DNA of 55,283 nucleotides, taken from IMG/VR virus record IMGVR_UViG_3300012924_000011, positions 1-55,283 of that record; one strand, written 5' to 3'. Of this stretch, positions 20,631 through 55,283 are shown piece by piece. This stretch comes from a virus. Lineage: Duplodnaviria; Caudoviricetes. Under the pieces are notes generated by a model that did no database searches, was not told the DNA's origin, and was given only the letters and a program-made list of their open reading frames with translations. Position numbers and translations under genes: made by a program. Position 1 is the first letter of the stretch; each line of letters starts with the position of its first letter.

Positions 20631-20791
20631 GATTGGTTCACCCGGCACGGTTCGAACGTGCGTTTCAACAGTCAAAGGGTCGCGTCCTACCTGCTAGACG
20701 ACAGGTGAAAAGTGCCGGTATCATCCACGCCACCGGCAAGACGTAGCAGATCAGCGCATACGGGGAGAGGATCGCATGCGCTGATCGGATA

Positions 20792-21623: not shown

Positions 21624-21652
21624 GTGCTAGACGCTTGGAATGGGATATGCAA
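21624..21652 (-). promoter_or_regulatory. Putative promoter of the replication operon
   Basis: TTGCAT-17 nt-TAGCAC on the minus strand, back to back with TTGACA at 21661 on the plus strand. Confidence 0.45.
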
Positions 21653-21695
21653 ACGAAAATTTGACATAGCGGCTAATTTTTGGGACAGACCAGAT

Positions 21696-22319
21696 ATGAC
21701 AGATTTCACCATTCCATGCGACACGATCGCTCGTTTGTCGCGTATCCTCACCGTCGAAAGCACTGAGCCAACCATATGGTTCCGTTCGATCCGCATTGAT
21801 CACGGTATCGCGCTCGCGACAAACCGTGTGGTAATGGCGGTGGAAAAGATCAACAGCGATACGAATGATGGTGTGATCCATATCATCGCTGATCAAGCGC
21901 TTATCACGCAGTGCGCTAGCGAAGCGCCATTCAAAAGCATGTTGACGATTACGGTGAATGAATTACTGCAATATGCTGTCGCTAAAACGACGCTCGGTTA
22001 CGTTCATCCCGGTAATTGCGTCGTGTGGTCCAATGAACCCAATGATTTCGATCGTTGGCGTTCGATAATCGATTTGACCCGCGAACCGGCAATAAAGCCG
22101 TCTGGTGGTATGTATTGGAGCGCAGAAAATATCGCGAACCTTGCCGCCGCCAGCCCATCCGGTCGATTGGTGTTCGAAGAAATTATTGATTGCACCGGCG
22201 CACGACCGACTATTGTTCGAGACGTGAACGATTATGAATGGTTCGGTATCTTCCAACCGTTCACGCGCGGCGATGGTTCATATAGCCCGGCAACCTTACC
22301 ATCATGGATGACGCGATGA
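21696..22319 (+). CDS. Hypothetical protein, weakly beta-clamp-like
   Basis: First gene of the + operon; ALATNRVVMAV resembles the clamp AVATDGHRLA strand; function uncertain. Confidence 0.5.
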   Translation: MTDFTIPCDTIARLSRILTVESTEPTIWFRSIRIDHGIALATNRVVMAVEKINSDTNDGVIHIIADQALITQCASEAPFKSMLTITVNELLQYAVAKTTLGYVHPGNCVVWSNEPNDFDRWRSIIDLTREPAIKPSGGMYWSAENIANLAAASPSGRLVFEEIIDCTGARPTIVRDVNDYEWFGIFQPFTRGDGSYSPATLPSWMTR

Positions 22320-22735
22320 TCCCGATTGTGTGCCAAACAAAGCATGATCCTGATGCCGGGACGTATGGTGATTGCATGCGTGCTTGTATCGCATCGATCC
22401 TCGAATTCGCGCCGGATCGGGTGCCGCACTTCATGCACGACAATTGCGATCCGATGGAAGCCAATCAACGAATGGTCAAATGGTTGGCGCATTACGGTTA
22501 TGCACCATTCGTGATCAATTGCGGCGGTGAAGATACCTTCGCCGATATTCTCGCTTACATGGGTGAACAAAACCCGACGACATATTACATGGTATTCGGT
22601 CGCACCGAATATGAAGATCATGTTGTTGTCTGCCGTGGCGGTGAATTAGCGCATGATCCGGCTTGGTATTGGTCACCGCTGATCGGTCCCGGTTCAACTG
22701 GTGCATGGGCGATTATGGTAATCGCACGTTCATGA
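22316..22735 (+). CDS. Putative papain-fold (C39-like) cysteine peptidase
   Basis: Q...GDC.RAC.AS.L, H-V-V-V and HDP in the Cys-His-Asp order of C39 peptidases. Confidence 0.55.
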   Translation: MIPIVCQTKHDPDAGTYGDCMRACIASILEFAPDRVPHFMHDNCDPMEANQRMVKWLAHYGYAPFVINCGGEDTFADILAYMGEQNPTTYYMVFGRTEYEDHVVVCRGGELAHDPAWYWSPLIGPGSTGAWAIMVIARS

Positions 22736-31688: not shown

Positions 31689-32219
31689 CTAGATCACCAC
31701 GTTGAACAAATGATCGAGGCTGTTCAAATCATCGTCGGTGCCGTGCTCGATCATATTGCCGACAGCATGTGCAAATTGCGGCGAATAGACCCCGCTGAAT
31801 ATGGCCGTCATCAACGTTGCGCGAATTTTGGCGGCGCGGGCCGTGTTGGCCTCGGCCAGTTCGCGTGCCCGGCGCTCGATTTCGGACGTGTTGTGTGCGT
31901 CGACAAACGCATTGATCGCGTCATGATTGATGCCGCTGATCGTGCCGAGATTGAGAGCCGCCATGACATGGTTAATTGCGTTAGCGTTTACCAAAACGTC
32001 CATGTTTTTGGTCTTCTTATATCGCTCACCGAAATTGATGAGGTTGCGATAGAGCGTTAGGCCAAGTTCCCATGTTGTGCCATCGTGTTGCGGGCGTACC
32101 CATATATGGTAGCGGAATTCGCCCGCCTCGAAATCGATGGTACAGTTGCTGCGATATGCGTTGGTATTGCTGCATGCCGAAATGTGGCAGTTGGTGATAT
32201 TTTTGATCGCGATAGCCAT
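31689..32219 (-). CDS. Hypothetical protein
   Basis: 176 aa; AAGGA SD; TAATG coupling. Confidence 0.7.
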   Translation of the reverse strand: MAIAIKNITNCHISACSNTNAYRSNCTIDFEAGEFRYHIWVRPQHDGTTWELGLTLYRNLINFGERYKKTKNMDVLVNANAINHVMAALNLGTISGINHDAINAFVDAHNTSEIERRARELAEANTARAAKIRATLMTAIFSGVYSPQFAHAVGNMIEHGTDDDLNSLDHLFNVVI

Positions 32220-40000: not shown

Positions 40001-40227
40001 CTGATATGCGCGTAATATCGAATGAATTGCATGGTGATCCTAATGCCGCTGCGCAAATTCGTGAGATTGCCGATTTGGTTGAAAGCGGTGCTGTTCGTGA
40101 TATCGTGATTGTGTATGATAATCGCAAAGAGAAGCATTTAGCTAGTTGGGGTGAATTCAGCGATCGTTGGCGGTTGCTTGGTGCGATCGAGTACGCCAAG
40201 AAACACATATTTAACGGTATGGGGTAG
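39997..40227 (+). CDS. Hypothetical protein between terS and terL
   Basis: Coupled to both neighbours; LLGAIE..K motif. Confidence 0.6.
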   Translation: MTDMRVISNELHGDPNAAAQIREIADLVESGAVRDIVIVYDNRKEKHLASWGEFSDRWRLLGAIEYAKKHIFNGMG

Positions 40228-41957
40228 TGTTCTTCGCCGATAACGCCGATCTATTCGAACCATCGGTAGTTATCGCGCCGATGGTCAAGTCATGGAAGCC
40301 TGTCGCACTCGCACACGATCAATGGCCTCCCGATTATCGTGGTGCCTATGCTTGGCGTATCGAGCAATTGACCAAGCTTCGCGGTGATGCTGCGTTGTTG
40401 CGATCGGCAAAAGCTTATTATTCGACGCGCCCCGCTGAATTCATCATGCATTGGATGGACACCTATAACCCGCGCAAGTCGGGCAATAAATGGGTGCCGT
40501 TCATATTCTTCATGAAGCAAGCGGAATTCATCACGTTTCTTGAAGAGTTGGACCGTGATCAAGAGAATGGTCTAGTCGAGAAGTGTCGCGATATCGGCGC
40601 AACGTGGCTGGCATGTGCTTATTCAGTGTGGAAATGGTTGTTTTCGTCCGATGATGCGACCGGTTGGGGATCGCGCGAGCAAGACTTAGTCGATAAAATC
40701 GGTGATCCTGACAGTATCTTCGAAAAGATGCGTTTGCTGATCAAGCGATTGCCCAATATTTGGTTACCGGAAGGCTTCAAGACGCGTGATCATGCGACGT
40801 TCATGAAGCTGATCAATCCTGATAATGGCGCGAATATCACCGGTGATATCGGTGATAATATCGGTCGTGGTGGACGTAAGGCGCGCGTGTTCAAGGATGA
40901 AAGCGCGCATTGGAAACGACCTGAACTAGCCGAAGCTGCACTTGGCGATAATACTAATGTTCAAATTGATATGTCGTCGGTGAATGGATTGGGCAACGTG
41001 TTCCATCGCCGTCGCGAAAGCGGTGTTGATTGGCAAGTCGGCGCGGTGATTGAAGCGGGCATGGTGCGTGTGTTCGTGTTCGATTGGCGCGATCACCCTG
41101 AAAAAAATCAAGCATGGTATGATCAGCGCAAAGCCAAAGCTGAGCGTGAAGGCATGCAGCATATATTTGCGCAAGAGGTTGATCGCAATTATAGCGCCGC
41201 TGTTCAAAACACGATCATTCCTTACGAATGGCTGCAAGCGTGCATCGATGCGCATTTGAAGGTGCCGTGTCTGCGTGTGCCGCCACCGAACGTGTGGATG
41301 GCGGGGCTTGATATCGCCGATGAAGGTCAGGACCGTAATGCGCAAGCGCTGCGTCAATGGATCATCTTGCGTAAGATTGAAGAATGGGGCGAGCGTGATC
41401 CCGGTGCGACGGCGCGCAAGTCGATCGCGATGGTCCGTCATATCAAAGGTATCAAAGTTCAATATGATAGCATCGGTGTCGGTTCAAACGTAAAATCGGA
41501 ATACAATCGACTGTGTGATGAAAAGGTTATCACTCCCCAAATCATTCAATATGTGGCGTGGAACGCTGGTGCTAAAGTCGTCAATCCATACGATCGCATC
41601 ATTCCGAATGATGATGAGAGTTTGTATAATCGCGACTTCTATCAGAACTTCAAAGCCCAAGCGTGGTGGTCGTTCCGTGCTCGTTGCTATAAAACGTTCA
41701 TGGCGATCACCCAAGACGCCGTTTATCCGGCCGATGATTTAGTCAGCTTCGACAGCGAGGGTCTCGGTGCCGAGTTGTATCCGCTCTTGAAGGAACTGGC
41801 GCAGTCTGTCAGTAAGCCAAGCGCAGGATTGAAAACAATGGTCGATAAAACTCCGGAAGGCACTAAAAGCCCGAACAAAGCGGATGCGACGATCATGGCG
41901 TATTTTCCGGCACCGGAAGAACATGGCTATGCGGTTAGTGGTGGATATTCAGGATGA
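40227..41957 (+). CDS. terL: Terminase large subunit
   Basis: EK.RD.GATW, GRGGR..R.F.DE.AH, SS.NG..N.F; nuclease GLD.ADEG.D, YDSIGVG, SPN.ADA. Confidence 0.93.
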   Translation: MFFADNADLFEPSVVIAPMVKSWKPVALAHDQWPPDYRGAYAWRIEQLTKLRGDAALLRSAKAYYSTRPAEFIMHWMDTYNPRKSGNKWVPFIFFMKQAEFITFLEELDRDQENGLVEKCRDIGATWLACAYSVWKWLFSSDDATGWGSREQDLVDKIGDPDSIFEKMRLLIKRLPNIWLPEGFKTRDHATFMKLINPDNGANITGDIGDNIGRGGRKARVFKDESAHWKRPELAEAALGDNTNVQIDMSSVNGLGNVFHRRRESGVDWQVGAVIEAGMVRVFVFDWRDHPEKNQAWYDQRKAKAEREGMQHIFAQEVDRNYSAAVQNTIIPYEWLQACIDAHLKVPCLRVPPPNVWMAGLDIADEGQDRNAQALRQWIILRKIEEWGERDPGATARKSIAMVRHIKGIKVQYDSIGVGSNVKSEYNRLCDEKVITPQIIQYVAWNAGAKVVNPYDRIIPNDDESLYNRDFYQNFKAQAWWSFRARCYKTFMAITQDAVYPADDLVSFDSEGLGAELYPLLKELAQSVSKPSAGLKTMVDKTPEGTKSPNKADATIMAYFPAPEEHGYAVSGGYSG

Positions 41958-42247
41958 CCAACATAACACGTAAGATTACACCAGCGCAAGAAAAGGCGCT
42001 TGAATGGTTTGACCGCAAGGGCGGGACCGGCGTGTTCACCAAGGATGGCAGCGCGGTCATTGCGGGCGGTGATCAAGGTTCATTCACTCGCGCCACGTGG
42101 ATCGCCTTGCGCGATGCTCTACGCGTCACCATCAACGGCACGCGGTTAACAAGTTTGACCAACGGTGCAATGGGCGCACCAATTGCCCGCAACCCGTCCG
42201 AACCATTCGCACATGGTATGATCAACGCATTGCCGGGGGCTGAATGA
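41954..42247 (+). CDS. Hypothetical protein
   Basis: ATGA coupling to terL and portal. Confidence 0.6.
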   Translation: MTNITRKITPAQEKALEWFDRKGGTGVFTKDGSAVIAGGDQGSFTRATWIALRDALRVTINGTRLTSLTNGAMGAPIARNPSEPFAHGMINALPGAE

Positions 42248-43980
42248 TGACCACCATTCGCACGATCAGCGCAGTTTATCCCGTCGCGTTCGACACCGGC
42301 TATATACCGACTACGGTGGAAGCCGTTCAAGCGGCGAAGATCGGCACGACGCGTCTTGAAAACGACGTGATGTTGAAGCGCTCGCCTGATAGCGCCGCCA
42401 TGCTCGATTATTGGGATTTGACCGACAACATTGTCGATGGGATCGGCGCGCTTCGCCTCGCTGGTGAAAAGTGGATGCCCAAGTTCGCCGATGAACAGGA
42501 CAAGGATTATCAATTTCGCCTGAAATCGACCAAGTTGACCAATGTCTACCGCGACACCGTTGAAGGGTTGGCATCGAAGCCGTTTCAACAAGAGGTTGAT
42601 TTGATCGAAGGTGACGACAATGGCACCAAGATCATCGTTCCCGATGCGATCAAGGAATTCACCGAAAACGTCGATGGTAGCGGCAATAATCTGACCATCT
42701 TCGCCGGTGCAACGTTTTTCAATGGGATCAATAGTGCGGTTGATTGGATTTTTGTCGATCATCCGCCTGCTGATCCGACAATTCGCACTCAGGCGGAGGA
42801 AAAAGCGGCATCGATCCGCCCATATTGGTCACATGTGCTCGGCCGTAACGTGCTTGAGCCGCGATCCAAGATGATCGGTGGCAAAGAGGTTATCACATAC
42901 GTTCGTTTGTTCGAACCGGGCCGACCCGATCATGTTCGCGTGTTCGAACGCGGCGACGACGGTATTGTGCGTTGGGAGTTGTTTGAGAAAACCACCAATT
43001 GGCGCGATATGGAAGGCGGTCAAACGCAATTCTTTCCAGTGCAGGGTGATGGCGGCGCAGGCGTGGTGACCATCGGTGTGATCCCGCTGGTGCCATTCAT
43101 CACCGGACGGCGCGACGGTCGCACGTTCAAACTATTTCCGGCAATGCGCGATGCCGCTGATCTTCAGATTGAGTTGTATCTGCAAGAAAGCGCATTGAAA
43201 TGGAATAAGCAACTTGGCGCTTATTCCATGCTCACCGGCGATGGTGTGAAACCACAAATGGAAGCCGATGGTACAACACCGAAAAAGATCGCGACCGGGC
43301 CGGGACGTGTGCTCTACGCACCAAGCGACGGTAATGGCAACAGCGGATCATGGAAGTTCATTCAGCCCGACGCTCAAGTCATGAAATTCCTTGCCGATGA
43401 CGTGAAAGAGACGATCGCACAGTTGCGCGAGTTAGGGCGGCAACCCTTGACCGCACAGTCGGGCAATCTGACAGTTATCACCACTGCCGTTGCGGCTGGT
43501 AAGGCAAAGAGTGCTGTTGCCGCATGGGCATTGATGCTGAAGGATGCGTTAGAGAACGCCATGTCCATCACCGCCAAATGGATGGCGATGAACGATTACA
43601 AGCCGAAGATTTATGTTTACACCGAGTTTGACGAATTCCTTGACGGCAAGGATTTGGACACCTTGGACGCTGATCGGGATCGAGGCGATATCTCGCAAGA
43701 GACATTGTGGGAAGAAAAGAAGCGTCGTGGTGTTTACGGATCGGAATTCACCGCCGATCGCGAGCGTGAACGACTTGATGAAGAGGAACAAGCATTGCTC
43801 GCCAAACAACCCAATGACGGCGGGTTGGACGGTACGGGCACCGGCGACGTGATCCCGCCACCAGCGCCGGGAACGCCGGGCCGTAATTTGCCGATGAACA
43901 ACGGCCTTGGTAAAATCACCCCGGCCAAGGAACCGGTCAAGTCGAAGTCACGTACACCGAATTTGGCACTGCCAACCTGA
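42244..43980 (+). CDS. Portal protein (DUF4055-like)
   Basis: Position after terL; P...E....Y..RL, N.DG.G..L..F, VD.P...RPY, G.IP.V, G.IS.ET..EE..RRG. Confidence 0.9.
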   Translation: MMTTIRTISAVYPVAFDTGYIPTTVEAVQAAKIGTTRLENDVMLKRSPDSAAMLDYWDLTDNIVDGIGALRLAGEKWMPKFADEQDKDYQFRLKSTKLTNVYRDTVEGLASKPFQQEVDLIEGDDNGTKIIVPDAIKEFTENVDGSGNNLTIFAGATFFNGINSAVDWIFVDHPPADPTIRTQAEEKAASIRPYWSHVLGRNVLEPRSKMIGGKEVITYVRLFEPGRPDHVRVFERGDDGIVRWELFEKTTNWRDMEGGQTQFFPVQGDGGAGVVTIGVIPLVPFITGRRDGRTFKLFPAMRDAADLQIELYLQESALKWNKQLGAYSMLTGDGVKPQMEADGTTPKKIATGPGRVLYAPSDGNGNSGSWKFIQPDAQVMKFLADDVKETIAQLRELGRQPLTAQSGNLTVITTAVAAGKAKSAVAAWALMLKDALENAMSITAKWMAMNDYKPKIYVYTEFDEFLDGKDLDTLDADRDRGDISQETLWEEKKRRGVYGSEFTADRERERLDEEEQALLAKQPNDGGLDGTGTGDVIPPPAPGTPGRNLPMNNGLGKITPAKEPVKSKSRTPNLALPT

Positions 43981-44020
43981 TCCCGATGCAGCACCGGGGA
44001 TTGTGCTGCACCATGCCCGC

Positions 44021-44060
44021 GATTGGATGATCAAAGGCGCAATGGGGTGGATGCCCTAAA
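44021..44060 (+). promoter_or_regulatory. Twin GGAU-loop hairpin leader element, copy 1 (scaffold)
   Basis: 34/40 identical to 45639..45678; abuts the scaffold SD. Confidence 0.7.
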
Positions 44061-44070
44061 GGAAATGAAC

Positions 44071-44907
44071 ATGCGTAAGACCAAAACTTTGATCGCATTG
44101 ATGACCACCGCGATCTTTCCCGTCGCCTTCGAAACCGGATCGCCCGGTTGGAAAAAGGATGCCGAGGGCAAGCTTGTGCTCGATGCCGAGGGTAATCCGA
44201 TCTTCGTCAACACGGCTGGCGTGGAACAATCGGTGAAAGGTGATACGATTACCAACCTTTCATCCGAAGCGAAGGGCCATCGCACCGCCAAGGAAACCGC
44301 CGAAGCGGCGCTTGCCAAATACAAGACGACCGATGGCAAGATGATCGATCCGGAAATCGCCGCCAAGGCGATCGAGACGGTCGGTAAGATCGACGCCAAG
44401 CAATTGATGGACACTGGCAAAGTCGAAGAATTGACCAACAACATCAAAGCGGGTTTCACCGTGCAGTTGACGGAAAAAGATGCCGCGTTGACCAAGGCGA
44501 ATGAGACGATCAACGGCATGAAGATCGACGGTGTGTTCAAGGGCAGCGAATTTATCGCCGACCGGGTTGCCATGCCGCGCGATTTCTTCGAAGCCGCAAT
44601 GCGGTCGAACTTCAAGGTCGAAGATGACGGCAAGATCGGCGCGTATGATCGCAGCGGCAATCGGCTGATGTCCAAAAAGAATGCCGGTGAATTCGCCGAT
44701 CCCAACGAAGCACTTGAATTGCTCGTTGAAATGCATCCGCAGAAAGATACGATCCTCAAGGCGAGCGGTGCAGGTGGATCGGGCAATAACGGCGGCGGCG
44801 GCGCACGTGGTGCTGGTCGGACGATGAAGCGCGACGATTTCCTTGCGCTTTCCCCGGCCGATCAATCAACGATCGCAACGAAGGGTGAAACGCAGATTGT
44901 CGATTGA
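44071..44907 (+). CDS. Capsid scaffolding protein (DUF6651-like)
   Basis: G.P.FV...G.E....I..L..EAK.HR; F..S.FI...F...FKVE.G...AYD..GN...S....GE.A...EALE.LV..HP.KD.ILK.SG..GSG. Confidence 0.85.
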   Translation: MRKTKTLIALMTTAIFPVAFETGSPGWKKDAEGKLVLDAEGNPIFVNTAGVEQSVKGDTITNLSSEAKGHRTAKETAEAALAKYKTTDGKMIDPEIAAKAIETVGKIDAKQLMDTGKVEELTNNIKAGFTVQLTEKDAALTKANETINGMKIDGVFKGSEFIADRVAMPRDFFEAAMRSNFKVEDDGKIGAYDRSGNRLMSKKNAGEFADPNEALELLVEMHPQKDTILKASGAGGSGNNGGGGARGAGRTMKRDDFLALSPADQSTIATKGETQIVD

Positions 44908-44923
44908 CGGTTAGATCGCCGGG

Positions 44924-45127
44924 CTAGCTCGGTTGATCTCCATGGCCCGCCGCGTTGGTCATTACGCGGCGGGCCATGTTGCGTTTAAGCCATTGCCTCG
45001 CTTGGATCGCACGATAAGCTTGCAATCGACCTAACCCCGGCAATCGAGATTGTTCCGCCTCAATCGCTTCGTCTGTGATGAACATGATGATCGCTCCTAT
45101 GGTTGTTGCGATCATCATGCCCGGCAC
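44924..45127 (-). CDS. Small hypothetical protein, antisense inside the head operon
   Basis: AGGAG SD near 45095-45099 suggests a start near 45088. Confidence 0.5.
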   Translation of the reverse strand: MPGMMIATTIGAIIMFITDEAIEAEQSRLPGLGRLQAYRAIQARQWLKRNMARRVMTNAAGHGDQPS

Positions 45128-45141
45128 GTCTTAACGAATGG

Positions 45142-45426
45142 TTAAAGAAAGCAACCCTCGCAAACGTCCATTTTGACGCCCGTGATACTTTCGATGCGAA
45201 CCGCTTCCGCGTCGGCTTTGATTTTCATCGCAGCCTTGCCCGTTTCATCGATCGTTTGATATTGAAAATACTGTTGGGTTTTAATCCCGGCAGATTTCAA
45301 TATAGCACGTTCTCTATCACGTCGTTCGCGTTGATCCTTGGTGGTTTCGTCTTTGGTCGCTTTATAGCAAACCGAGACGGACCAATGCGCACGTGATGGA
45401 TCGCCGCCAAAGAATGATTTGGTCAT
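45142..45426 (-). CDS. Hypothetical protein, antisense inside the head operon
   Basis: GGAGA SD; driven by the left arm of the IR promoter. Confidence 0.65.
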   Translation of the reverse strand: MTKSFFGGDPSRAHWSVSVCYKATKDETTKDQRERRDRERAILKSAGIKTQQYFQYQTIDETGKAAMKIKADAEAVRIESITGVKMDVCEGCFL

Positions 45427-45477
45427 CGTCATATCTCCAATGTCAAAGAGCGCGTCGGTTAAATCTGACCGACTTGA

Positions 45478-45584
45478 CGATAATAGCACATTAATTCCCG
45501 ATGGTCAAGCCCTTAAATTTGCGATGATCGTTGCGATGGTCGCATTGATGGTCTTGACCATCGGGAATTAATGTGCTATTATCG
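45478..45584. promoter_or_regulatory. Divergent identical promoters forming a perfect 32-bp inverted repeat
   Basis: Arms 45478-45509 and 45553-45584, each reading outward TTGACC-atcgggaattaatgtgc-TATTAT. Confidence 0.85.
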
Positions 45585-45638
45585 CCGGAACCGCTTGACC
45601 AACTGCGCCATCTTGAATTATGCAGTTGGCTTGCCGAT

Positions 45639-45678
45639 GGTTGGATGACCGGGGGCGCAACGGGGTGGATGCCCTAAA
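45639..45678 (+). promoter_or_regulatory. Twin GGAU-loop hairpin leader element, copy 2 (capsid)
   Basis: Near copy of 44021..44060 with a compensatory stem change. Confidence 0.7.
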
Positions 45679-45710
45679 CCGTTTTCAATTCCAGCCAATG
45701 AGGCATTCAA

Positions 45711-46970
45711 ATGATCACTCTCGGTACGGGCCGTAACATGCGGCTGATCCTTGCGGCGGGCGTTGCCCCCGCGATCCTTTCCCATTCGTCGGTCGGTTAT
45801 GCGAATACGCTGACTGCGCTGATCCCCGATATCTATGCGGCGTTGAACGTCGTTTCGCGCGAACTGGTCGGCTTCATCCCGTCCGCAATGCGCGCGCCGG
45901 GCGTCGAACGCGCGGCGGTCGGCCAATCGGTGAAAATCCCTTCCGTTGGCGTGCAGACGGCGCAGGATAACGTACCTGCCATGCAGGTGCCGACCCCGCC
46001 CGACAACACCTTTGCCACCGGTTCGATGGCGATCACGAAATCGCGGTTGGTGCCGTTCGGTTTCACCGGCGAAGAGCAAAGGGCGCTCAACACCGGTGGT
46101 CCCGGCTATCTGACTTCGCGCGGCATGATCATCGCCGAAGCGTTGCGCGCGTTGACCAACGAAATCGAGCGCGACCTTGCCGTCGAAGCGGCGGCAAACG
46201 CCAGTCGTGCCTATGGCACCGCAGGCACCACGCCGTTCGCCACTGCCAACGAGCTTTCCGATCTCGCGCAAATCAAGAAAATCCTCGATGACAATGGCGC
46301 GCCAGACGGCGGCTTGCGATCGTTGGTGCTGAACACCAGCGCGGGCGCGAACCTGATCACCGTGAAGAACCTCACGCGGGTCAACGAAGCGGGCACGCAA
46401 ATGACGCTTCGGCAGGGCGAGTTGCTCGATATCTTCGGCTTCTCGATCAAGCAAACCGGGCAGGCCGTTTCGCACACGAAGGGCACCGGCGCAGCACCGA
46501 CCACCAACGCAGCCGGGTATGCGGTCGGTGCGACGGTGATTACGCTGGCAGCGGCATCGACCGGCACGTTGACGGCGGGCGAAGTCATCCAGTTCGCGGG
46601 CGATCCCAACAAGTATCTGATCGCACCGGCTGGTGGTGATACCGACGTATCCAACGGCGGTACGATCACCATTGCAAAGCCGGGCCTGCAACAGGCGATC
46701 CCGGCTGCGGCGACGCTGATCACGTTGGCGAACACCTATGCCGCCAACGTCGGCTTCTCGGCAAACGCACTGCAAATCGCGATGCGTCCGCCCGCGACGC
46801 CGGAAGAGGGTGACCTTGCGGTTGACCGCATGCTGATCACCGATCCGCGTTCTGGTGTCACGTTCGAATTCGCGATCTATCTCGGCTTCGGCATGGTTCG
46901 CTATCAGGTCGCGCTGGCGTGGGGCGTGAAGGCGGTCAAGCCGGAACATATTGCTTTGCTTTTGGGATGA
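45711..46970 (+). CDS. Major capsid protein (P22 coat-like)
   Basis: ANTL..LIP.IY.AL.VVSRELVGFIP...L.DNGAP...LRQG.L.D..GF...TDPRSG..FE...Y......Y.V.LAWGVKAVKPEH.ALLLG. Confidence 0.93.
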   Translation: MITLGTGRNMRLILAAGVAPAILSHSSVGYANTLTALIPDIYAALNVVSRELVGFIPSAMRAPGVERAAVGQSVKIPSVGVQTAQDNVPAMQVPTPPDNTFATGSMAITKSRLVPFGFTGEEQRALNTGGPGYLTSRGMIIAEALRALTNEIERDLAVEAAANASRAYGTAGTTPFATANELSDLAQIKKILDDNGAPDGGLRSLVLNTSAGANLITVKNLTRVNEAGTQMTLRQGELLDIFGFSIKQTGQAVSHTKGTGAAPTTNAAGYAVGATVITLAAASTGTLTAGEVIQFAGDPNKYLIAPAGGDTDVSNGGTITIAKPGLQQAIPAAATLITLANTYAANVGFSANALQIAMRPPATPEEGDLAVDRMLITDPRSGVTFEFAIYLGFGMVRYQVALAWGVKAVKPEHIALLLG

Positions 46971-47041
46971 TTTCGGCTTTAGCTGATTGACACCCCCAAC
47001 ATTCCCGGTCATAACGTCGTCAAATGGCGGAGTGACCGGGA

Positions 47042-47677
47042 ATGGATTGGATCACGATTAAACCCTATCTTTACCGATGGGGGCACATGATGGATCGTTG
47101 TTATGATCCTGATCATCCGATGTTTCCCCGTTATGGTGGACGCGGTATAAAAGTTTGCGACGAATGGCATAATTTTGCCACATATGCGGTTCAATTGCCT
47201 GCCGGTTACTTTGATAAGGCGCACCTTGATCGCATTGATAATGATGGCGATTACGAGCCGCAAAACGTTCGTTGGGTTTCAGCGTTAGAAAATCATAATA
47301 ATCGAGCCGATCATTTTCGAATTGAATATGATGGGAGAACGCAAAACCTTTCACAATGGGCACGTGAATTGAATATCAACATCGCAACGCTTCATACTCG
47401 CTTGGCCGTGTGGGATTGGCCTGTTGAACGTGCTTTTGAAACACCGCCGTTAGATGCTGCACAACGAATGTTAGTCGCGCGAACGAAGCGATATGAAGGG
47501 CACGTTAAGAAAATCAATTTAACATCAAGGACGCATCGCAAAGTTATCTATGACGGTCGAATGGTGACGTTGACTGAATTGTCTAAAATTTGCGGTGTAT
47601 CCGTAAAACTGCTCTATAAGCGGATATTCGAAAGGGGATGGCCCATCGAAAAAGCCGTTATCATCAATAAAACCTAA
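47042..47677 (+). CDS. Free-standing HNH homing endonuclease
   Basis: W..M..RC......YGGRGI.VC.EW..F...LDRIDNDG.YEP.N.RW.....N.NN; two C-terminal repeated DNA-binding modules; AT-richer than flanks. Confidence 0.9.
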   Translation: MDWITIKPYLYRWGHMMDRCYDPDHPMFPRYGGRGIKVCDEWHNFATYAVQLPAGYFDKAHLDRIDNDGDYEPQNVRWVSALENHNNRADHFRIEYDGRTQNLSQWARELNINIATLHTRLAVWDWPVERAFETPPLDAAQRMLVARTKRYEGHVKKINLTSRTHRKVIYDGRMVTLTELSKICGVSVKLLYKRIFERGWPIEKAVIINKT

Positions 47678-47704
47678 ATGTTTTCAACGTGTGGAGTGAC
47701 CAAG

Positions 47705-48163
47705 ATGAAGCATTTTCTTTTTGCATCGGTGGCGTCGGTGATCGTATCGGCGTTTTCGTCGGACGCGCCGTTGGAAACGGTGACGGTTGTTGGCGAGGAT
47801 GGCAATCCGCTGCGCATCAACAAATCGGACTATGTCGCCGATCAAGCCGATGGTGGCGCGAAGCTGTGGACGCTTCACGATGATCCCGCGCCGCAAGCCG
47901 ATGGTGGCGGTGTTGCGTTCGCATTGCCCCCCGGTATCACTCAACCCGCCGCCCCGGCTGCGCCTGATTTTTCCGATGCCGTCGCGCCGCCTGCGCCGTC
48001 GATCGGTCAAAAGCTGGTGCAAAAGGACGGTCGCAAGTTCTTCGTCGTGGTCGCGGCGGAAGGCGGCGCTTTCCCCAAGTTGACCGATACGCCGGGGATC
48101 GATGAAAAGGGCTATGCGACCGACAAGGAAGCATGGGACGCCATCATGGCGCTGCCATCCTAA
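47705..48163 (+). CDS. Hypothetical head-region protein
   Basis: GGAG SD; G....IN.SDY motif seen in genes next to capsid genes. Confidence 0.65.
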   Translation: MKHFLFASVASVIVSAFSSDAPLETVTVVGEDGNPLRINKSDYVADQADGGAKLWTLHDDPAPQADGGGVAFALPPGITQPAAPAAPDFSDAVAPPAPSIGQKLVQKDGRKFFVVVAAEGGAFPKLTDTPGIDEKGYATDKEAWDAIMALPS

Positions 48164-48200
48164 CCGGCTAGCCCTAGACCGGGCTGTCATGCTAGGAACG

Positions 48201-48232
48201 GGGCGGCGGGGCAACTTGCCGCCCTTTTCTTT
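48201..48232 (+). terminator. Rho-independent terminator
   Basis: GGGCGGC...GCCGCCC stem followed by TTTTCTTT. Confidence 0.75.
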
Positions 48233-48244
48233 GGAGCGATCCCT

Positions 48245-48751
48245 ATGGCCGATATCTATGGCACTGCGGCGGGTTTCCGTCTCTATCACATTGCACGTGG
48301 TCGATCGGTGATCAATTATACCGATGACGTTGAATTGAATGCTGCGTTGCTAGTGTCGTCCGAATGGGTTGATGCCAAATTTCGCGTATCGTTCGGTGGC
48401 ACGAAGGTTGGTCAACGTGCCCAAATTCGTGAGTGGCCACGCAACGGTGCAATGGATCGTGATTGCTATTCGATCCCGGCCGATAGCGTTCCGGTGGAAG
48501 CCAATAACGCGACATATGAAGCGGCGTTGCGTGAATTCAATTCACCGGGTGCTCTTTCCGTCGATTGGACACCGAACAAATATAAACGCGTGTCGGTCGA
48601 TGGTGCGATCAGCGCTGAATATGCTAACTTCGGTGCAGCGAGCGATATCCAAACGGAATTCGCGATCATCGAACAAATCATCGCACCGATCCTGACCGGT
48701 CATGGCGGTGGCAATCTGTCGTCGCTTTCCGGCCGGATCAGCCGCGTATGA
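48245..48751 (+). CDS. Head-tail adaptor (DnaT-like phage family)
   Basis: Y..ARG...AL...S.W.D....G......Q..EWPR......IP..V..A.YE.A; V.GAI..EY. Confidence 0.8.
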   Translation: MADIYGTAAGFRLYHIARGRSVINYTDDVELNAALLVSSEWVDAKFRVSFGGTKVGQRAQIREWPRNGAMDRDCYSIPADSVPVEANNATYEAALREFNSPGALSVDWTPNKYKRVSVDGAISAEYANFGAASDIQTEFAIIEQIIAPILTGHGGGNLSSLSGRISRV

Positions 48752-48794
48752 AAAAGGGCGCTGCATCGGGGGGGGTGATGCAGCGCCCTTCCTT
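48751..48794. terminator. Bidirectional terminator
   Basis: AAGGGCGCTGCATC / GATGCAGCGCCCTT stem between convergent genes, with an A run on the left. Confidence 0.8.
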
Positions 48795-48846
48795 CGTGCC
48801 CAGCGCATGGGGGCATGCGCGCCGGGATCGTGCCGCTATCGCCGGA

Positions 48847-49326
48847 TCAGGCTTCGCGGAACACCAGCACCGTCGAACCGTCCAGTTCGGTGCCCTTGAT
48901 CGCCTTGAACAGGTCGCCATTCTTGGCCACGTCGAAAGCGGCGAAACGCTTGCCGGCGACCTTCTCCGGCTCCGTGGTCGGCGAACGGCCGACAACGACA
49001 CCTTCGGCGTTCTTCATTTCGATCGTCTTGTAGATGACGTTACCGGCATCGTCGGTCTTGTTCACCATCCCCTTGCGGTTGGCATTGCTGATGATCGAGG
49101 AAAGCGACTTGGCGTCACGGTTCTTGACGCCGAACGCATCGCCGACGTTGGTGAGCGTATCGAAGGGAAAAATCGACGTGCTGCCGCGCTTGCTTTCGCG
49201 CTTCGGCATGGCGATGCCCGACACGACGGCGGTAAGCTGCGGTTCGATACGCGGCTTGGCGGCGGGCGGCGCGCTGGCGAATGCGACGGGGATCACGGCA
49301 TTGGTCGGAAGCGAAAAATTGCGCAT
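48847..49326 (-). CDS. Hypothetical, probably DNA-binding, protein with PVAF leader
   Basis: AAGGA SD; P.R...RG....FPF..L..VGD.F.V motif; own promoter (copy 7). Confidence 0.7.
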   Translation of the reverse strand: MRNFSLPTNAVIPVAFASAPPAAKPRIEPQLTAVVSGIAMPKRESKRGSTSIFPFDTLTNVGDAFGVKNRDAKSLSSIISNANRKGMVNKTDDAGNVIYKTIEMKNAEGVVVGRSPTTEPEKVAGKRFAAFDVAKNGDLFKAIKGTELDGSTVLVFREA

Positions 49327-49375
49327 GGTCATTTCCTTGTTGCTATAGCCCCACAATCGGCGGGTGCTTCGGTTA

Positions 49376-49404
49376 TCTCTAATGATCGTTCAAACGGTCG
49401 TCAA
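49376..49404 (-). promoter_or_regulatory. Repeated early promoter, copy 7 (divergent spacer)
   Basis: TTGACG-accgtttgaacgatcat-TAGAGA. Confidence 0.7.
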
Positions 49405-49422
49405 TAGGGTGGAGTGAATTTT

Positions 49423-49812
49423 ATGGTGACGATCTATCAGGAGTTGAAGGGTGTGGCATCCGAATTGCTCGCTCAATTCGATCAAAAGGAACCCGGTGAT
49501 GCAAACCCTGCGAGCAATGGCATCTATTATGTTCGTGTCGTGCCCGGTAGTGGCCCTGCCGCTAACCCCGGCCCATCGGTCGAAACGCCGTTCAAGGTGG
49601 ACGCCACGGCGCGTGGCGTATCGTTTCGCTACATCGACAATAAAAGTGTCGTGGCGTCCGATCTTCAAATTACGCATGCCGTGCACCCCGGTTTCGTTCC
49701 CGACGAAAAGGGGTTTGTGCTGATCGACGGTGTCCGGCATAAGGTTATCAGAGCGATCCGTAAGCCCGCCGCTGGTACGCCGGTTGCATATACTCTTGTC
49801 ATAAGGAAATAA
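49423..49812 (+). CDS. Head closure / head-tail joining protein
   Basis: A..LL..F.Q...GV...YID...V...D......IDG....I......PAAG..V.Y....R. Confidence 0.75.
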   Translation: MVTIYQELKGVASELLAQFDQKEPGDANPASNGIYYVRVVPGSGPAANPGPSVETPFKVDATARGVSFRYIDNKSVVASDLQITHAVHPGFVPDEKGFVLIDGVRHKVIRAIRKPAAGTPVAYTLVIRK

Positions 49813-49815
49813 GCG

Positions 49816-49926
49816 ATGACTTGGGATAATGATGCAACATGGAGTGATGGCGGAACGTGGGATGATCCGTTCATTCGACTATGGTCCAACCTAATGGTTT
49901 GGGACAATGGGTTTTGGTGGAATTGA
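49816..49926 (+). CDS. 36-aa Trp/Asp-rich peptide (not in ORF track)
   Basis: MTWDNDATWSDGGTWDDPFIRLWSNLMVWDNGFWWN; AAGGA SD; fills the gap exactly. Confidence 0.55.
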   Translation: MTWDNDATWSDGGTWDDPFIRLWSNLMVWDNGFWWN

Positions 49927-49927
49927 C

Positions 49928-51004
49928 ATGACACCACGCCAACAACTTGACGCGCTGATCGATCTATTCGCGCCGCAAATTCGAATTGCATTTCTAGCGG
50001 CAATTCAGGATATCGTTGATAACGCGATCCTGAACCAAGTGATTGAGGCGATCGATCAGGGTGATGTTGAAAAAGCATTCATTGTGCTTGGTTTTTCAAC
50101 AGCGGCGATGCGCCCATTAACTGCCGTGATTGAAACAGCCTATGAACAAGGCGGTGTCATGACCGGACGCACGTTCCCGAAATATTTGAATACATATAGC
50201 GGTCGTGCTGTATTCCGTTTCGACGTTCGCAATAGTCGGGCTGAAGCCTATTTGCGTGACAAGTCGTCCCAATTGGTGAGCCGGATCGCCGATGATACGC
50301 GTGTCAATATTCGCAATACGTTGACGATCGGCATGCAGGACGGTCGCAATCCTCGCAATGTGGCGCTCGACATCATCGGCCGTATCGATCCTGTCACCAA
50401 ACAACGCGTCGGCGGGATCGTCGGGCTGACAACACAACAAGAGACATGGGCGCGTAACGTTCGTAACAAGTTAAACGATACGGCTGATTGGTTGGAACGT
50501 GAGCGTTTGGCGCATCCGACCGCACGACCAACGGCTGAAAGTCACCCGTATTTCAGTTATGAAATGCGCGACAAACGTTTCGATCGCACGGTTGCTACGG
50601 CGATCCGCGACGGTAAAGCATTGCCGAGCGATGTAGTTGAAAAGTTGGTGCTGCGCTATAAAGACAACGCATTGAAGCTTCGTGGCGAAATGATTGCTCG
50701 CACCGAAGCACTTCAATCACTGAACGCGTCCGAATATGAAGCGATCAAGCAAGCGGTTGCAACCGGGGCGGTCAATGAAAGCGCTGTTCAGCGCGAATGG
50801 GATAGCGCCGGTGATAAGCGTGTTCGATACACTCACCGTAAAATGAATGGTCAACGTGTTGGTCTTGATGAACCGTTCAAGTCGCCAAGCGGTGCGCTGA
50901 TGATGCATCCGGGCGATACGTCGTTGGGTGCCGGTGCGGACGAAGTTGTTGCTTGTCGGTGTCGCGTCCGCTCCGTGATCGATTGGCTGCAAGACTTAGA
51001 TTGA
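49928..51004 (+). CDS. Head morphogenesis / minor capsid protein (Mu gpF / SPP1 gp7-like)
   Basis: R.EMIARTE...W.SAGD.RVR.TH..MNGQ.V..DEPF..P.G..MMHPGD...A.E...CRC. Confidence 0.88.
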   Translation: MTPRQQLDALIDLFAPQIRIAFLAAIQDIVDNAILNQVIEAIDQGDVEKAFIVLGFSTAAMRPLTAVIETAYEQGGVMTGRTFPKYLNTYSGRAVFRFDVRNSRAEAYLRDKSSQLVSRIADDTRVNIRNTLTIGMQDGRNPRNVALDIIGRIDPVTKQRVGGIVGLTTQQETWARNVRNKLNDTADWLERERLAHPTARPTAESHPYFSYEMRDKRFDRTVATAIRDGKALPSDVVEKLVLRYKDNALKLRGEMIARTEALQSLNASEYEAIKQAVATGAVNESAVQREWDSAGDKRVRYTHRKMNGQRVGLDEPFKSPSGALMMHPGDTSLGAGADEVVACRCRVRSVIDWLQDLD

Positions 51005-51506: not shown

Positions 51507-51772
51507 TCCTTTGCTGCGTTAAATCTGATTGTATGCATTAGTTTGCGGCAAACGTCAAAACGAATGCCTTTGGTCGCGCTGTCTTTGATCCCGTCATCGA
51601 ACATGATACGCAATCGTGGATCGATGGCAGCGATCATGTCGGGATAGGTCTTGCGCTGCTCGTCCGATGCCCAAACCATGCACCGGCCAACAATATAAGC
51701 GTCTGCGGCTTGGCTTTCGGTGATCGTCTGCGTTGCGGCGCTCGCCAATGCGATAGCAATGATCAACATCAT
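51503..51772 (-). CDS. Hypothetical protein with signal-peptide-like N-terminus
   Basis: MMLIIAIALASAA; ATGA coupling; GAGG SD. Confidence 0.6.
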   Translation of the reverse strand: MMLIIAIALASAATQTITESQAADAYIVGRCMVWASDEQRKTYPDMIAAIDPRLRIMFDDGIKDSATKGIRFDVCRKLMHTIRFNAAKD

Positions 51773-52869
51773 TCAATCCTCTTAATTTTGATCGGTAAGC
51801 CTTCCGGTTCGATCAATGGTAAAATCGACATAGGATCGTCGGTCAAACGCGATGCGTGTATACCAAAAATCTGCGGAATGTAAAACTCATTCATTGCGGT
51901 CGGGTGCTCTTCGGTGAATGCCTTGCTGATCAATCCACGATTATCATCACTCACATGACATTCGGGTACGCAGCCCTTGGCCGCGAAGAAAAAGCGCCGA
52001 CTGAATGATGGATGACCGAGTGCGAACGTGATATCGAGTAAGTTCAAGCGTTCATGCGCTTCCTTGATCCGTACCGCTAATTGAGCTTGCGGGCTGTAAT
52101 CATGCGAATGCAGTGTTGTCGCAACAGCGATCACTTCGCATCGATATCCCTCGCGTTCTAACAGATCGATCATTCCGGCGATGATCAATGCGCGAAAGGT
52201 TGCGACCGATGCGCCGATGCCGCGCCACATAATCGTTTGGACGAATAAGCGAATGTTGCGGTGGCCGGGCTGGCGCGTTCGTCTGATCATATGTCGGGGA
52301 TCGCTCGACAACATGCGCCCGACGTTCACCGTGCCGCCTGCCATGCTGTGGAAGCGACGTTTCGACTGTGCTGCATCTACGGTTAGCTTGCCGGTAATGC
52401 CCATGCCGTCCATCCAACCGTTGCGCGCCAGATCGAGCGTGTGCGCCATGTCGGCGGTTCCGGCAAATTCGGCATATTCTTCATCGTCTTTCCAGCCGAC
52501 CGCACTGCGGCACTGATCGAATTCGCTAGGACGTGACAGCCCGGCGATATAATCAGCGAACATGCGCAGGCTGCTAAAGCCGAAAAACGCCGTAGGGTCT
52601 TGATCTTCGAAATAGTTGAAGAATGATCGATCATCGCCGAAATGCTGCGTTGGTGGTTGCACTGATGGCGTTGGCGTTATTACGTCGCGATCCGCTCGCC
52701 ACGTCGGTTCACTCGACATAACGAACACGCCGACAAGCTTGTTCAGCGCGGCAATTTGGTCGTTGTCGAGAAAGTGGAATTGCCAGTTGCGATCAGCGTT
52801 CGACCATCGTCCGCCCATTGATTTGAACAATTCGCGATGGTCGAATGTGCGCCCGGTGACGGTGATCAT
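51769..52869 (-). CDS. vWA-like partner of a MoxR-type ATPase
   Basis: AGG..NV...L..DP..M...R...I...ID.LE..G.R.E.....K.....L.L....F.L.HP...RR..F. Confidence 0.6.
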   Translation of the reverse strand: MITVTGRTFDHRELFKSMGGRWSNADRNWQFHFLDNDQIAALNKLVGVFVMSSEPTWRADRDVITPTPSVQPPTQHFGDDRSFFNYFEDQDPTAFFGFSSLRMFADYIAGLSRPSEFDQCRSAVGWKDDEEYAEFAGTADMAHTLDLARNGWMDGMGITGKLTVDAAQSKRRFHSMAGGTVNVGRMLSSDPRHMIRRTRQPGHRNIRLFVQTIMWRGIGASVATFRALIIAGMIDLLEREGYRCEVIAVATTLHSHDYSPQAQLAVRIKEAHERLNLLDITFALGHPSFSRRFFFAAKGCVPECHVSDDNRGLISKAFTEEHPTAMNEFYIPQIFGIHASRLTDDPMSILPLIEPEGLPIKIKRIE

Positions 52870-54144: not shown

Positions 54145-54173
54145 GCTCTAATGGTCATTGCGACGGTCGTCAA
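54145..54173 (-). promoter_or_regulatory. Repeated early promoter, copy 9
   Basis: TTGACG-accgtcgcaatgaccat-TAGAGC. Confidence 0.8.
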
Positions 54174-55249
54174 GCGTTGATTTTATCGCGGTCCTTGCCG
54201 TTCATTCCCTTAAAGAGATAAATCTCTTCCACAACATCCCAATCGATCCCGATGGACAATGCCGCTGCGCCCATGGCGATTGCGCGGGTGCTGACTACGT
54301 GACGAATGTGTTTGTCGTTGACGATCTTGCGCACTTCCCAAACGCGTTCAAGCCATCGGTCATTTGACCCGGCGAACATGCGTTCAAGGTTCAGGTCATA
54401 GCCAACGTCAATCACTGCGAAACGATCGAGACTAGCCGCGTCCAATTCGTTGCGCCCGACATAGAGACGATCAGCCCCGGTGCCGAATGTATTGGCGGTG
54501 GCGATCATCCTGAAATCAGGATGGCGCATGATCGGTGCAGGCATATCGGGAAAGTTGCAATATCCATTGGCAAGCGCGCTATTTGCGGCAAGCAAGGCGT
54601 TTGCGTCCCACGCGTCGATTTCATCGGCGATCCATACGCCCCCTTTTTCATAAGCGTGACGAAACGGCGTATCATGATATTTGCCATGGCCATCAACGAA
54701 ACCGATCAGTTCATGCGTGTCATTGATGGTGCTGGTGATATAGAATTGTAATTGTAGCGCTAGGGCTGTGTGTTCGCCGATGGTCGTTTTGCCGCAACCG
54801 GCTGGACCAACCAACATGATCGCATGCCCGATGCTGGCAATTTTGATCACCAATTCGGTGCGATAATGAACCGTTGCATTGATCATCACCGATCCGCGCG
54901 GTGATAAAACTTCAAGCTGGCGTGGCGGGATCGCAGTAATCAATGCGTGACATTCTTCACGCGCGAGATAGCGCACCAATTCTTCATCGGGGAACCGCCC
55001 CTGTGGCATGGCCGCCAAGGTGTCCATGATCGCTTGTGCGGTCGCGCGCTGTACGTCTGAAGGGGTTTCCGGCCCGGCGCTGGCGTGATAGAGATTGGCA
55101 AGGTCAACCGCCGACATGGCGTGAACCGCGAGCGGATCATAGCCTGATATCAACGCCCATTCGGTCAGATAGGGCTTGTCATCCGGAACCATGATATAGG
55201 TGTGCGGATCGCCAAGGCGCTGATAGAGGAAATTGAGGCGGAGCGTCAT
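54170..55249 (-). CDS. MoxR/CbbQ-type AAA+ ATPase
   Basis: Walker A GPAGCGKT, Walker B IADEID, HPDFR.IATANT.G.G....Y.GRN.LDAA.LDRF, VSTR. Confidence 0.9.
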   Translation of the reverse strand: MTLRLNFLYQRLGDPHTYIMVPDDKPYLTEWALISGYDPLAVHAMSAVDLANLYHASAGPETPSDVQRATAQAIMDTLAAMPQGRFPDEELVRYLAREECHALITAIPPRQLEVLSPRGSVMINATVHYRTELVIKIASIGHAIMLVGPAGCGKTTIGEHTALALQLQFYITSTINDTHELIGFVDGHGKYHDTPFRHAYEKGGVWIADEIDAWDANALLAANSALANGYCNFPDMPAPIMRHPDFRMIATANTFGTGADRLYVGRNELDAASLDRFAVIDVGYDLNLERMFAGSNDRWLERVWEVRKIVNDKHIRHVVSTRAIAMGAAALSIGIDWDVVEEIYLFKGMNGKDRDKINA

Positions 55250-55283
55250 TGTGATCGCATAACCAATCACCAATACCGATGCA

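Follow-up and report, generated by a model that had tools for sequence, protein, structure and literature searches.

A conserved N-terminal leader, possibly a cleavable propeptide, on unrelated head and tail proteins of a phage clade related to Rhizobium siphoviruses

Six unrelated proteins encoded by the IMG/VR virus record IMGVR_UViG_3300012924_000011 (Caudoviricetes), namely the portal, scaffold, major capsid, and tail tube proteins, a minus-strand DUF7303 protein, and a head-region protein, begin with similar short leaders, and this raised the question of what a tag common to head and tail proteins is and how it is read. The record is a complete virus record of 55,283 bases, and its whole length is referred to as the window; its head genes had about 65% DNA identity to those of the Rhizobium siphoviruses vB_RglS_P106B (P106B) and RHph_X2_24 (X2_24) of the genus Rigallicvirus. 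The tag was real, strongly conserved, and clade-wide, and it may be a propeptide that is cut off behind its terminal aromatic residue.

The comparison comprised 12 genomes or fragments: the window, P106B, X2_24, the IMG/VR records G001 to G004, L006, L010/11, L012/13, L014, and a prophage (L068/L089) in the metagenome-assembled genome (MAG) G005. In the window, 82 genes were predicted by a crude codon-usage gene call, and gene names were taken from Pfam (40 open reading frame [ORF] products scanned) and PHROGs (30 scanned). Leader residues are numbered back from the junction, P1 being the terminal aromatic residue of the leader and P1' the residue behind the junction.

The leader in the window and among its relatives

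The translations matched the six N-termini listed in the earlier note on this DNA (Table 1). Shine-Dalgarno-like purine runs were located upstream of the leader Met of the scaffold, minus-strand, tube, and head-region genes and of the capsid gene at 45711. The capsid gene had a second in-frame Met at 45738, and its better Shine-Dalgarno-like run was GAGG 7 nt upstream of 45711, which made the 30-residue capsid leader given in the earlier note plausible. No ATG, GTG, or TTG was found between the capsid leader Met and the conserved ANTL in the window and the relatives examined; the capsid leader must therefore be translated, and the earlier observation that no in-frame start sits at ANTL was correct.

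A leader rule written post hoc (no Asp or Glu, Lys or Arg near the start, an uncharged tail, and [AG][FY] at residues 10-36) was met by 8 of the 82 predicted genes: the six leader-bearing genes plus 5888-6577 and 31689-32219, the last two probably by chance. Shuffled N-termini gave a mean of 1.45 genes meeting this post hoc rule, and 0 of 2000 shuffles reached 8. Since the rule was post hoc, independent proof had to come from leaders in relatives. A position-weight matrix of the leader could not tell true leaders apart from spurious ORFs rich in Ala, and thus no full per-genome list of leader-bearing genes is claimed.

The 12 genomes contained 48 leaders of 10-36 residues with a common pattern: Met, Lys/Arg, an uncharged run of Ala, Leu, Thr, and Ser, in many cases Pro at P4, and an end of Ala/Gly (P2) and Phe/Tyr (P1). 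Residue 2 was Lys or Arg in 30 of the 48 leaders versus 3 of 76 other window genes. The six protein families differed in how regularly they were tagged: (i) the scaffold leader was present in 10/10 genomes; (ii) the capsid leader was present in 10/11, L006 having an extension but with Gly at P1; (iii) the tube leader was present in 9/10, the L012/13 tube starting M-ADTL; (iv) the portal leader was present in 8/10 related genomes with a complete portal N-terminus; (v) the DUF7303 protein leader was present in six related genomes, found as a variant without the aromatic residue in one, and absent from three; and (vi) the head-region protein leader was present in five genomes and absent from at least three (G003, X2_24, and L068), and the homologues in G001, G002, G004, and L014 had the leader and then a Met directly after the aromatic residue. 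L012/L013 carried the leader only on scaffold and capsid; such protein-by-protein gain and loss fits a portable module.

Database searches at E<=1e-10 yielded 412 scaffold and 798 tube homologues, and the best 120 of each were examined as alignments to the window protein. In 119/120 scaffolds the sequence extended for 9 residues or more ahead of the junction column; 115/120 tubes had an extension, and the remaining 5/120 started with Met at the P1 position. The proposal of a common peptide tag on head and tail proteins was thus upheld, homologues carrying analogous leaders in related genomes and in databases alike. The aligned junctions displayed P1 F101/Y14, P2 A110, P4 P51, and P1' E58/D40 in scaffolds (n=119) and P1 F89/Y17/H7, P2 A101, and P4 P62 in tubes (n=115), where P1' was Ala, Phe, or Val (Ala in 81/115). 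Information content was maximal at P2 (Ala, 3.6-3.8 bits) and P1 (Phe/Tyr, 3.3-3.5 bits), with a secondary peak at P4; with these peaks in two unrelated families and a family-specific P1', a processing site would be set by the residues on the leader side. The last 14 leader residues were acid-free in 118/119 scaffolds and 113/115 tubes, and Arg occupied P3, two before the aromatic residue, in 27/119 scaffolds. Leaderless scaffolds started M-KLKLD, a few residues inside the junction. The expectation that the conserved domain starts right after the aromatic residue held for the capsid, scaffold, tube, and head-region proteins, as judged from domains or leaderless homologues, and not for the portal, whose domain began about 27 residues after the junction.

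Capsids outside the clade, from viral contigs, prophages, and phages (Acinetobacter, Caulobacter, Paraglaciecola, Pasteurella, Microcystis, and others), started M-ANTL with Met at the P1 position, just as the earlier note had stated for this capsid family. The 12 leader-bearing capsids formed one clade (SH-aLRT 99.7 in a quick maximum-likelihood tree of 67 capsids) whose sister was a leaderless Nitrosomonadaceae MAG prophage; the leader had a single origin on the capsid, and any clade-wide association therefore has the weight of a single evolutionary event.

Different proteins of one genome had similar leader ends: the mean number of P5-P2 identities between them was 1.655, versus 1.085 (standard deviation 0.072) when genome labels were permuted within families, and the observed value was reached by 0 of 5000 permutations. 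In G002, P2 was Gly in 6/6 leaders versus 2/42 elsewhere (Fisher 2.3e-6), and its Gly codons were mixed (GGC three times, GGT twice, GGG once), which argues against pure gene-to-gene copying. This within-genome covariation of leader ends points to one trans-acting reader per phage-host pair. At the DNA level, CCCGTCGCNTTC occurred in the window only at the three PVAF ends (3 matches versus 0.04 expected), and CCC encoded all four P4 prolines of the window leaders though it made up 20% of Pro codons, so part of the within-genome likeness lay in the nucleotides themselves. The differing Ala codons of the three PVAF ends had been taken to imply selection on the peptide and not a DNA repeat; the codons (GCG, GCC, and GCA) were confirmed, while the inference drawn from them stood only in part, given this nucleotide-level likeness. 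Leader modules may also spread between genes by copying.

Some further N-termini were of interest beside these leaders. The gp2.5-like single-stranded DNA-binding protein of G002 (L082; 19741-20706) had a possible 13-residue leader ending TAY; its orthologues started directly at the conserved domain, and an internal Met made this leader ambiguous. Small Cys-containing proteins of P106B (L090; 43291-43509, minus strand) and X2_24 (L002; 529-837, minus strand) had leader-like N-termini with AAF or TAF before Ala, and they may be true secreted proteins. Ten capsid frames of Burkholderiales/Verrucomicrobia prophages (L046, L058, L063, L066, L070, L015, L038, L039, L043, and L049) stayed open for 50-70 residues ahead of ANTL, included hydrophobic stretches of a membrane-like kind, and had no ATG at ANTL, and the scaffold homologue was leaderless at the Burkholderiales loci L046, L058, L063, L066, and L070; these stretches seem to be a different matter, with GTG/TTG starts or overlapping small genes being possible.

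Table 1. Leaders and named genes of the window (positions count from its first base; aa, amino acids)
Feature	Position	Strand	Details
Portal leader	42244-42291	+	16 aa, ends PVAF (translation); gene 42244-43980
Scaffold leader	44071-44130	+	20 aa, ends PVAF (translation); gene 44071-44907
Capsid leader	45711-45800	+	30 aa if started at 45711, 21 aa if started at Met 45738; VGY end followed by ANTL
Tail tube leader	923-976	+	18 aa, ends PGAF (translation); gene 923-1720
Minus-strand protein leader	49279-49326	-	16 aa, ends PVAF; 159-aa protein, DUF7303 / phrog_7597; gene 48847-49326
Head-region protein leader	47705-47755	+	17 aa, ends VSAF; 152-aa protein without family assignment; gene 47705-48163
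Cys/His protein	22304-22735	+	143 aa; phrog_5845, no Pfam; weak candidate for leader-processing enzyme
Large terminase	40227-41957		Pfam/PHROGs
Portal, DUF4055	42244-43980	+	Pfam
Scaffold, DUF6651 / phrog_206	44071-44907	+	Pfam/PHROGs
Major capsid protein, P22-type coat	45711-46970	+	Pfam/PHROGs
HNH endonuclease, phrog_3377	47042-47677	+	4.6e-55; between capsid gene and head-region protein gene
Adaptor Ad1	48245-48751		Pfam/PHROGs
Head closure Hc1	49414-49812		Pfam/PHROGs
MuF-type head-morphogenesis protein	49907-51004		Pfam/PHROGs
Major tail protein / tail tube, phrog_158	923-1720	+	PHROGs

Predicted cleavage and rival explanations

The reading that we favor, with evenly balanced confidence, is that the leader is a propeptide which a single site-specific endopeptidase cleaves off after Phe/Tyr. 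Among the main self-assembling virion proteins, scaffold and capsid would carry it always, portal and tube usually, and two small proteins sometimes; the endopeptidase would recognize the basic start, the acid-free Ala/Leu/Thr/Ser run, and the (Pro)-x-Ala/Gly-Phe/Tyr end; a cut after the aromatic residue would produce the same mature N-terminus that leaderless relatives get from their start codon, and the uncut leader would probably restrain the subunits, or bring them to a chaperone or assembly site that they share, before processing. This reading is favored because the junction coincides with the starts of leaderless homologues, i.e., the M|ANTL capsids, the 5/120 tubes of M|ANTN type, and the head-region homologues with Met after the aromatic residue. 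Both the position and the timing of the cut are predicted, and the enzyme is somewhat more likely to be encoded by the host than by the phage.

Several points weigh against cleavage by a dedicated enzyme. No peptidase family was found among the 40 ORF products compared with Pfam, a scan that covered 39 of the 82 predicted genes, the other 43 being mostly small; no prohead protease was found among the 30 products compared with PHROGs, and Peptidase_Prp (PF04327) was without a match in the window at E<=10. The P1 and P2 counts of the 48-leader table (F31/Y15/H2 and A40/G8, respectively) were partly set by the junction rule, the alignment-based database counts being free of it. Some leader ends of the window had the same 12-mer and one 12-mer was common to three leader ends in P106B, and the same codon was used at 95 of 205 identical residues in within-genome leader pairs versus 71 expected, the pairs not being independent; gene-to-gene copying or late-gene codon bias could therefore explain part of the covariation without a trans factor. 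Cleavage is predicted from junction conservation and, by analogy, from the Prp precedent. As cleavage is reported to be dispensable in phage 80alpha, a shared tag need not act through cleavage, and the function here may likewise lie in the uncut tag.

An uncleaved or unspecifically trimmed handling tag, binding a chaperone or an AAA+ unfoldase adaptor and thereby coordinating the folding, stoichiometry, or turnover of unassembled subunits, would suit the preference for Lys/Arg at residue 2 and the hydrophobic, acid-free composition, and the leader start resembles the N-terminal motif of ClpX substrates (Met, a basic residue, and three hydrophobic residues). The 80alpha authors also propose a common chaperone, the N-terminus of the scaffold being essential there and its cleavage not. 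A tag of this kind would nevertheless leave unexplained that P2 and P1 are the most conserved positions and that leaderless homologues start exactly at P1, and about 415 hydrophobic peptides per capsid, by our estimate, plus those of the tube would have to be accommodated; we hold it to be fairly unlikely. There is less still to be said for Sec- or signal recognition particle-type signals or membrane-association peptides, which would lead to the inner membrane or to export with signal peptidase I cutting at A-x-A-like sites. The basic start and hydrophobic core agree with them (29/48 leaders had a maximum 8-residue Kyte-Doolittle [KD] mean of at least 2.0), tubes often read A-F-A|N at the junction and so comply with the -3/-1 rule of small residues at the signal peptidase cut, and the look-alike N-termini of the small Cys-rich P106B and X2_24 proteins are possibly true signals. 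This account is at odds, however, with 16/48 leaders having a maximum 8-residue KD mean below 1.6 (an uncalibrated threshold), with portal leaders averaging a maximum of 1.03 and having uncharged runs of 4-11 residues, and with a longest uncharged run down to 3-8 residues in several leaders; scaffolds would have Pro at -3 in 51/119 if cut A|F and Glu/Asp at -1 in 98/119 if cut one residue later, where 32/115 tubes would have Phe or Val. DNA packaging and head and tail assembly are moreover cytoplasmic. A uniform Sec signal is unlikely, and the Sec reading as a whole is improbable.

The leaders could also be artefacts, the true starts lying downstream and the likeness reflecting a DNA repeat or a chance hydrophobic reading. 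The repetition of CCCGTCGCNTTC at three leader ends and the Met directly after the aromatic residue in four head-region homologues, where a downstream start is possible, would be in keeping with this. It is contradicted by the absence of any start codon after the capsid leader Met and ahead of the conserved N-arm, by the Shine-Dalgarno-like runs before the leader Met, by a peptide kept despite divergent DNA in 119 of the best 120 scaffolds and 115 of the best 120 tubes, and by the mixed Gly codons of G002; the artefact reading is largely refuted and, to us, hardly credible.

If the leader is a propeptide, the enzyme has to be sought. The earlier note had recognized no prohead protease gene, and the present scans with Pfam (40 ORF products), with PHROGs (30), and with the Peptidase_S78, C39, and Prp models likewise found none: PF04586 (S78 prohead protease) had no match in the window, G001, G002, G003, and G006, and the PHROG rows named head maturation protease were weak (5e-9 and 9e-8) beneath a 1e-105 head-morphogenesis (MuF) match. 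Peptidase_Prp was found in 0/21 genomes (20 relatives and G005 itself, which hosts a leader-bearing prophage) at E<=0.001 in a search that was positive in the controls B. subtilis, T. maritima, and L. lactis, and Peptidase_C39 (PF03412) had no match at E<=10 in five genomes. Two candidates were rejected: (i) a C39 double-glycine leader peptidase, with no PF03412 match and with leaders ending in Ala/Gly-Phe/Tyr and not Gly-Gly, and (ii) the DUF7303 protein as a self-processing protease, its alignment having no conserved Cys/His/Ser pattern.

Among phage products, the 143-aa Cys/His protein was considered as a small papain- or C39-like leader peptidase, an assignment that is quite unlikely. It was present in 8/8 leader-bearing genomes with enough sequence and in 0/5 leaderless capsid relatives searched; across 46 diverse members, G22-D23-C24 was invariant and H14, H42, H106, and H117 nearly so; an Atlas lead pointed to a cluster with Peptidase_C39 in 11% of members; and the protein of G002, the genome with Gly at P2, lacked the Trp that, beside H117, is invariant in the 22-member alignment A2 (a single case). 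Conversely, the family was very large and mostly viral (3306 cluster representatives), occurred also in phages with leaderless virion proteins (Me-ZS1, AXL_3, and Mallos), and gave no Pfam, C39, or PDB sequence match in profile searches; the gene was located inside the replication module, beside a clamp-like gene and a helicase; the association with the leader amounts to one evolutionary event because the clade is monophyletic; and the Cys/His pattern could equally be metal-binding. Searches with P0075 and P0046 for independent Gly-at-P2 lineages, meant to test covariation with the Cys/His protein, yielded no usable genomes. The first 16 nt of the Cys/His gene were also the last 16 nt of the clamp-like gene before it (21624-22319).

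Gene content and neighboring features

Besides the genes in Table 1, Neck1, tail terminator, chaperone, tape measure, and tip proteins and a T7-like replication module were named in the window. The HNH endonuclease gene was absent from G001 to G003 and P106B, and it is therefore probably a homing insertion. A strong terminator-like hairpin (44941-44978, plus strand; 15 pairs, 12 of them G-C) was located directly 3' of the scaffold gene. Two identical promoter-like sites (TTGACC, 17 nt, TATTAT, with TG) were oriented divergently at 45480-45508 (minus strand) and 45554-45582 (plus strand), with the capsid gene behind one of them and the minus-strand ORF 45142-45489 behind the other. The leader-bearing minus-strand gene had been called an early-promoter gene; a promoter scan of 44800-49950 gave no sigma-70-like site upstream of 49326 and so did not support this label.

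A tRNA-Gln (anticodon TTG; 20634-20708, minus strand) overlapped the 5' end of the predicted minus-strand exonuclease ORF 19551-20675, whose true start is thus probably further downstream. A DUF7192 protein (51769-52869, minus strand) and a CobS/MoxR-like AAA ATPase (phrog_249; 54170-55273, minus strand) formed a pair that was also present in G001 and P106B and not in G002 or G003.

Meaning of the tag and comparison with known systems

The tag marks a large environmental clade, to judge from the 412 scaffold and 798 tube homologues, with the leader in 119 and 115 of the best 120 of each, respectively. It predicts a protease or other reader that can be searched for in harmless hosts amenable to culture (Rhizobium gallicum with P106B and Sinorhizobium americanum with X2_24), and it provides a simple model in which to study why proteins that self-assemble are synthesized as pro-forms. 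If it is truly a propeptide, gene-start and mature-protein annotations would be corrected for hundreds of phage proteins. Our proposal, put forward tentatively as a possible rather than a probable one, is that Rhizobia-type hosts or these phages possess an undescribed endopeptidase reading the basic, acid-free (P)-x-A-F/Y leader, a Gram-negative functional counterpart of Prp, which the clade would have recruited to license up to six assembling proteins; if this enzyme is host-encoded, further cellular substrates are expected.

Outside the Prp system of Firmicutes, we know of no case of many unrelated virion proteins with one N-terminal propeptide, and of none that includes the portal. At the level of abstracts, no description of the tag was found in the literature on P106B/X2_24, on N-terminal propeptides of portal, capsid, and tube, on N-terminal extensions in Rhizobium phages, or on signal peptides of capsid, portal, and scaffold proteins. 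The earlier view that the tag is undescribed for this phage type thus agreed with these abstracts, although a precedent for a tail protein is already in print: according to the 80alpha paper, the phi13 major tail protein has the Prp motif.

With Sec signals, the leaders share a basic n-region, a hydrophobic core, and a small residue near the end, and some tube and DUF7303 leaders pass by eye; the portal leaders, in contrast, are too short and too polar, the scaffold sites violate the -3/-1 rule, and the proteins that carry the leaders are assembled in the cytoplasm. Mitochondrial presequences are cut by MPP, and Icp55 then removes one aromatic residue, giving an R-3 pattern. The leaders resemble them in being N-terminal, net positive, acid-free, and rich in Ala, Leu, Ser, and Thr, with Arg at P3 in some scaffolds; they differ in that most have no P3 Arg and that their basic residues are clustered at the start and not spread along an amphipathic helix. 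A two-step, MPP/Icp55-like processing in a bacterial lineage related to mitochondria is conceivable on the basis of this presequence-like composition and of P3 Arg in about one quarter of scaffolds. Phage prohead proteases (P2 gpO, T4 gp21, and HK97 gp4) trim several head proteins, and a P22-type capsid with a separate scaffold is as a rule not cleaved. The likeness to these proteases lies in the N-termini of portal, scaffold, and capsid being removed, here by prediction, at a common site type as the head matures; the difference is that the tail tube and non-head proteins are tagged here and that no such protease gene was found.

The closest known system is Prp in Firmicutes. The capsid and scaffold proteins of 80alpha lose 13-14 residues when Prp cleaves them at F|A; its motif is common to ribosomal protein L27, capsid, and scaffold and has also been noted on the major tail protein of phi13 and the phage 80 capsid protein; where L27 orthologues have no extension, their initial Met occupies the P1 position; and in 80alpha, cleavage is dispensable for both the capsid protein and the scaffold, while the scaffold leader is essential. 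The two systems are alike in four respects: (i) a short N-terminal extension on non-homologous virion proteins; (ii) a cut, here predicted, after Phe with a small residue next; (iii) orthologues without the extension that begin with Met at P1, as do the M|ANTL capsids and 5/120 tubes here; and (iv) no phage prohead protease, none being involved there and none being found here. Host Prp mimicry was nevertheless rejected, and membership in the Prp system fails: neither the window nor the 21 genomes had a Prp gene, and host L27 started MAHKKAGG directly after the start codon, without an extension, in 4/4 genomes where it was found (five searched). The motifs also differ, being a basic start, an Ala/Leu/Thr/Ser run, and P-x-A-F/Y here and (D/N)LQ(F/L)F|A(S/H)KK for Prp, with only the aromatic P1 in common; the hosts are of alphaproteobacterial, Gram-negative type here and Firmicutes there; and up to six proteins are tagged here, including portal and tube in most relatives. 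Compared to the shared propeptide of Prp type, the tag is new in its Gram-negative phage lineage, its different motif, and the larger number of proteins that carry it.

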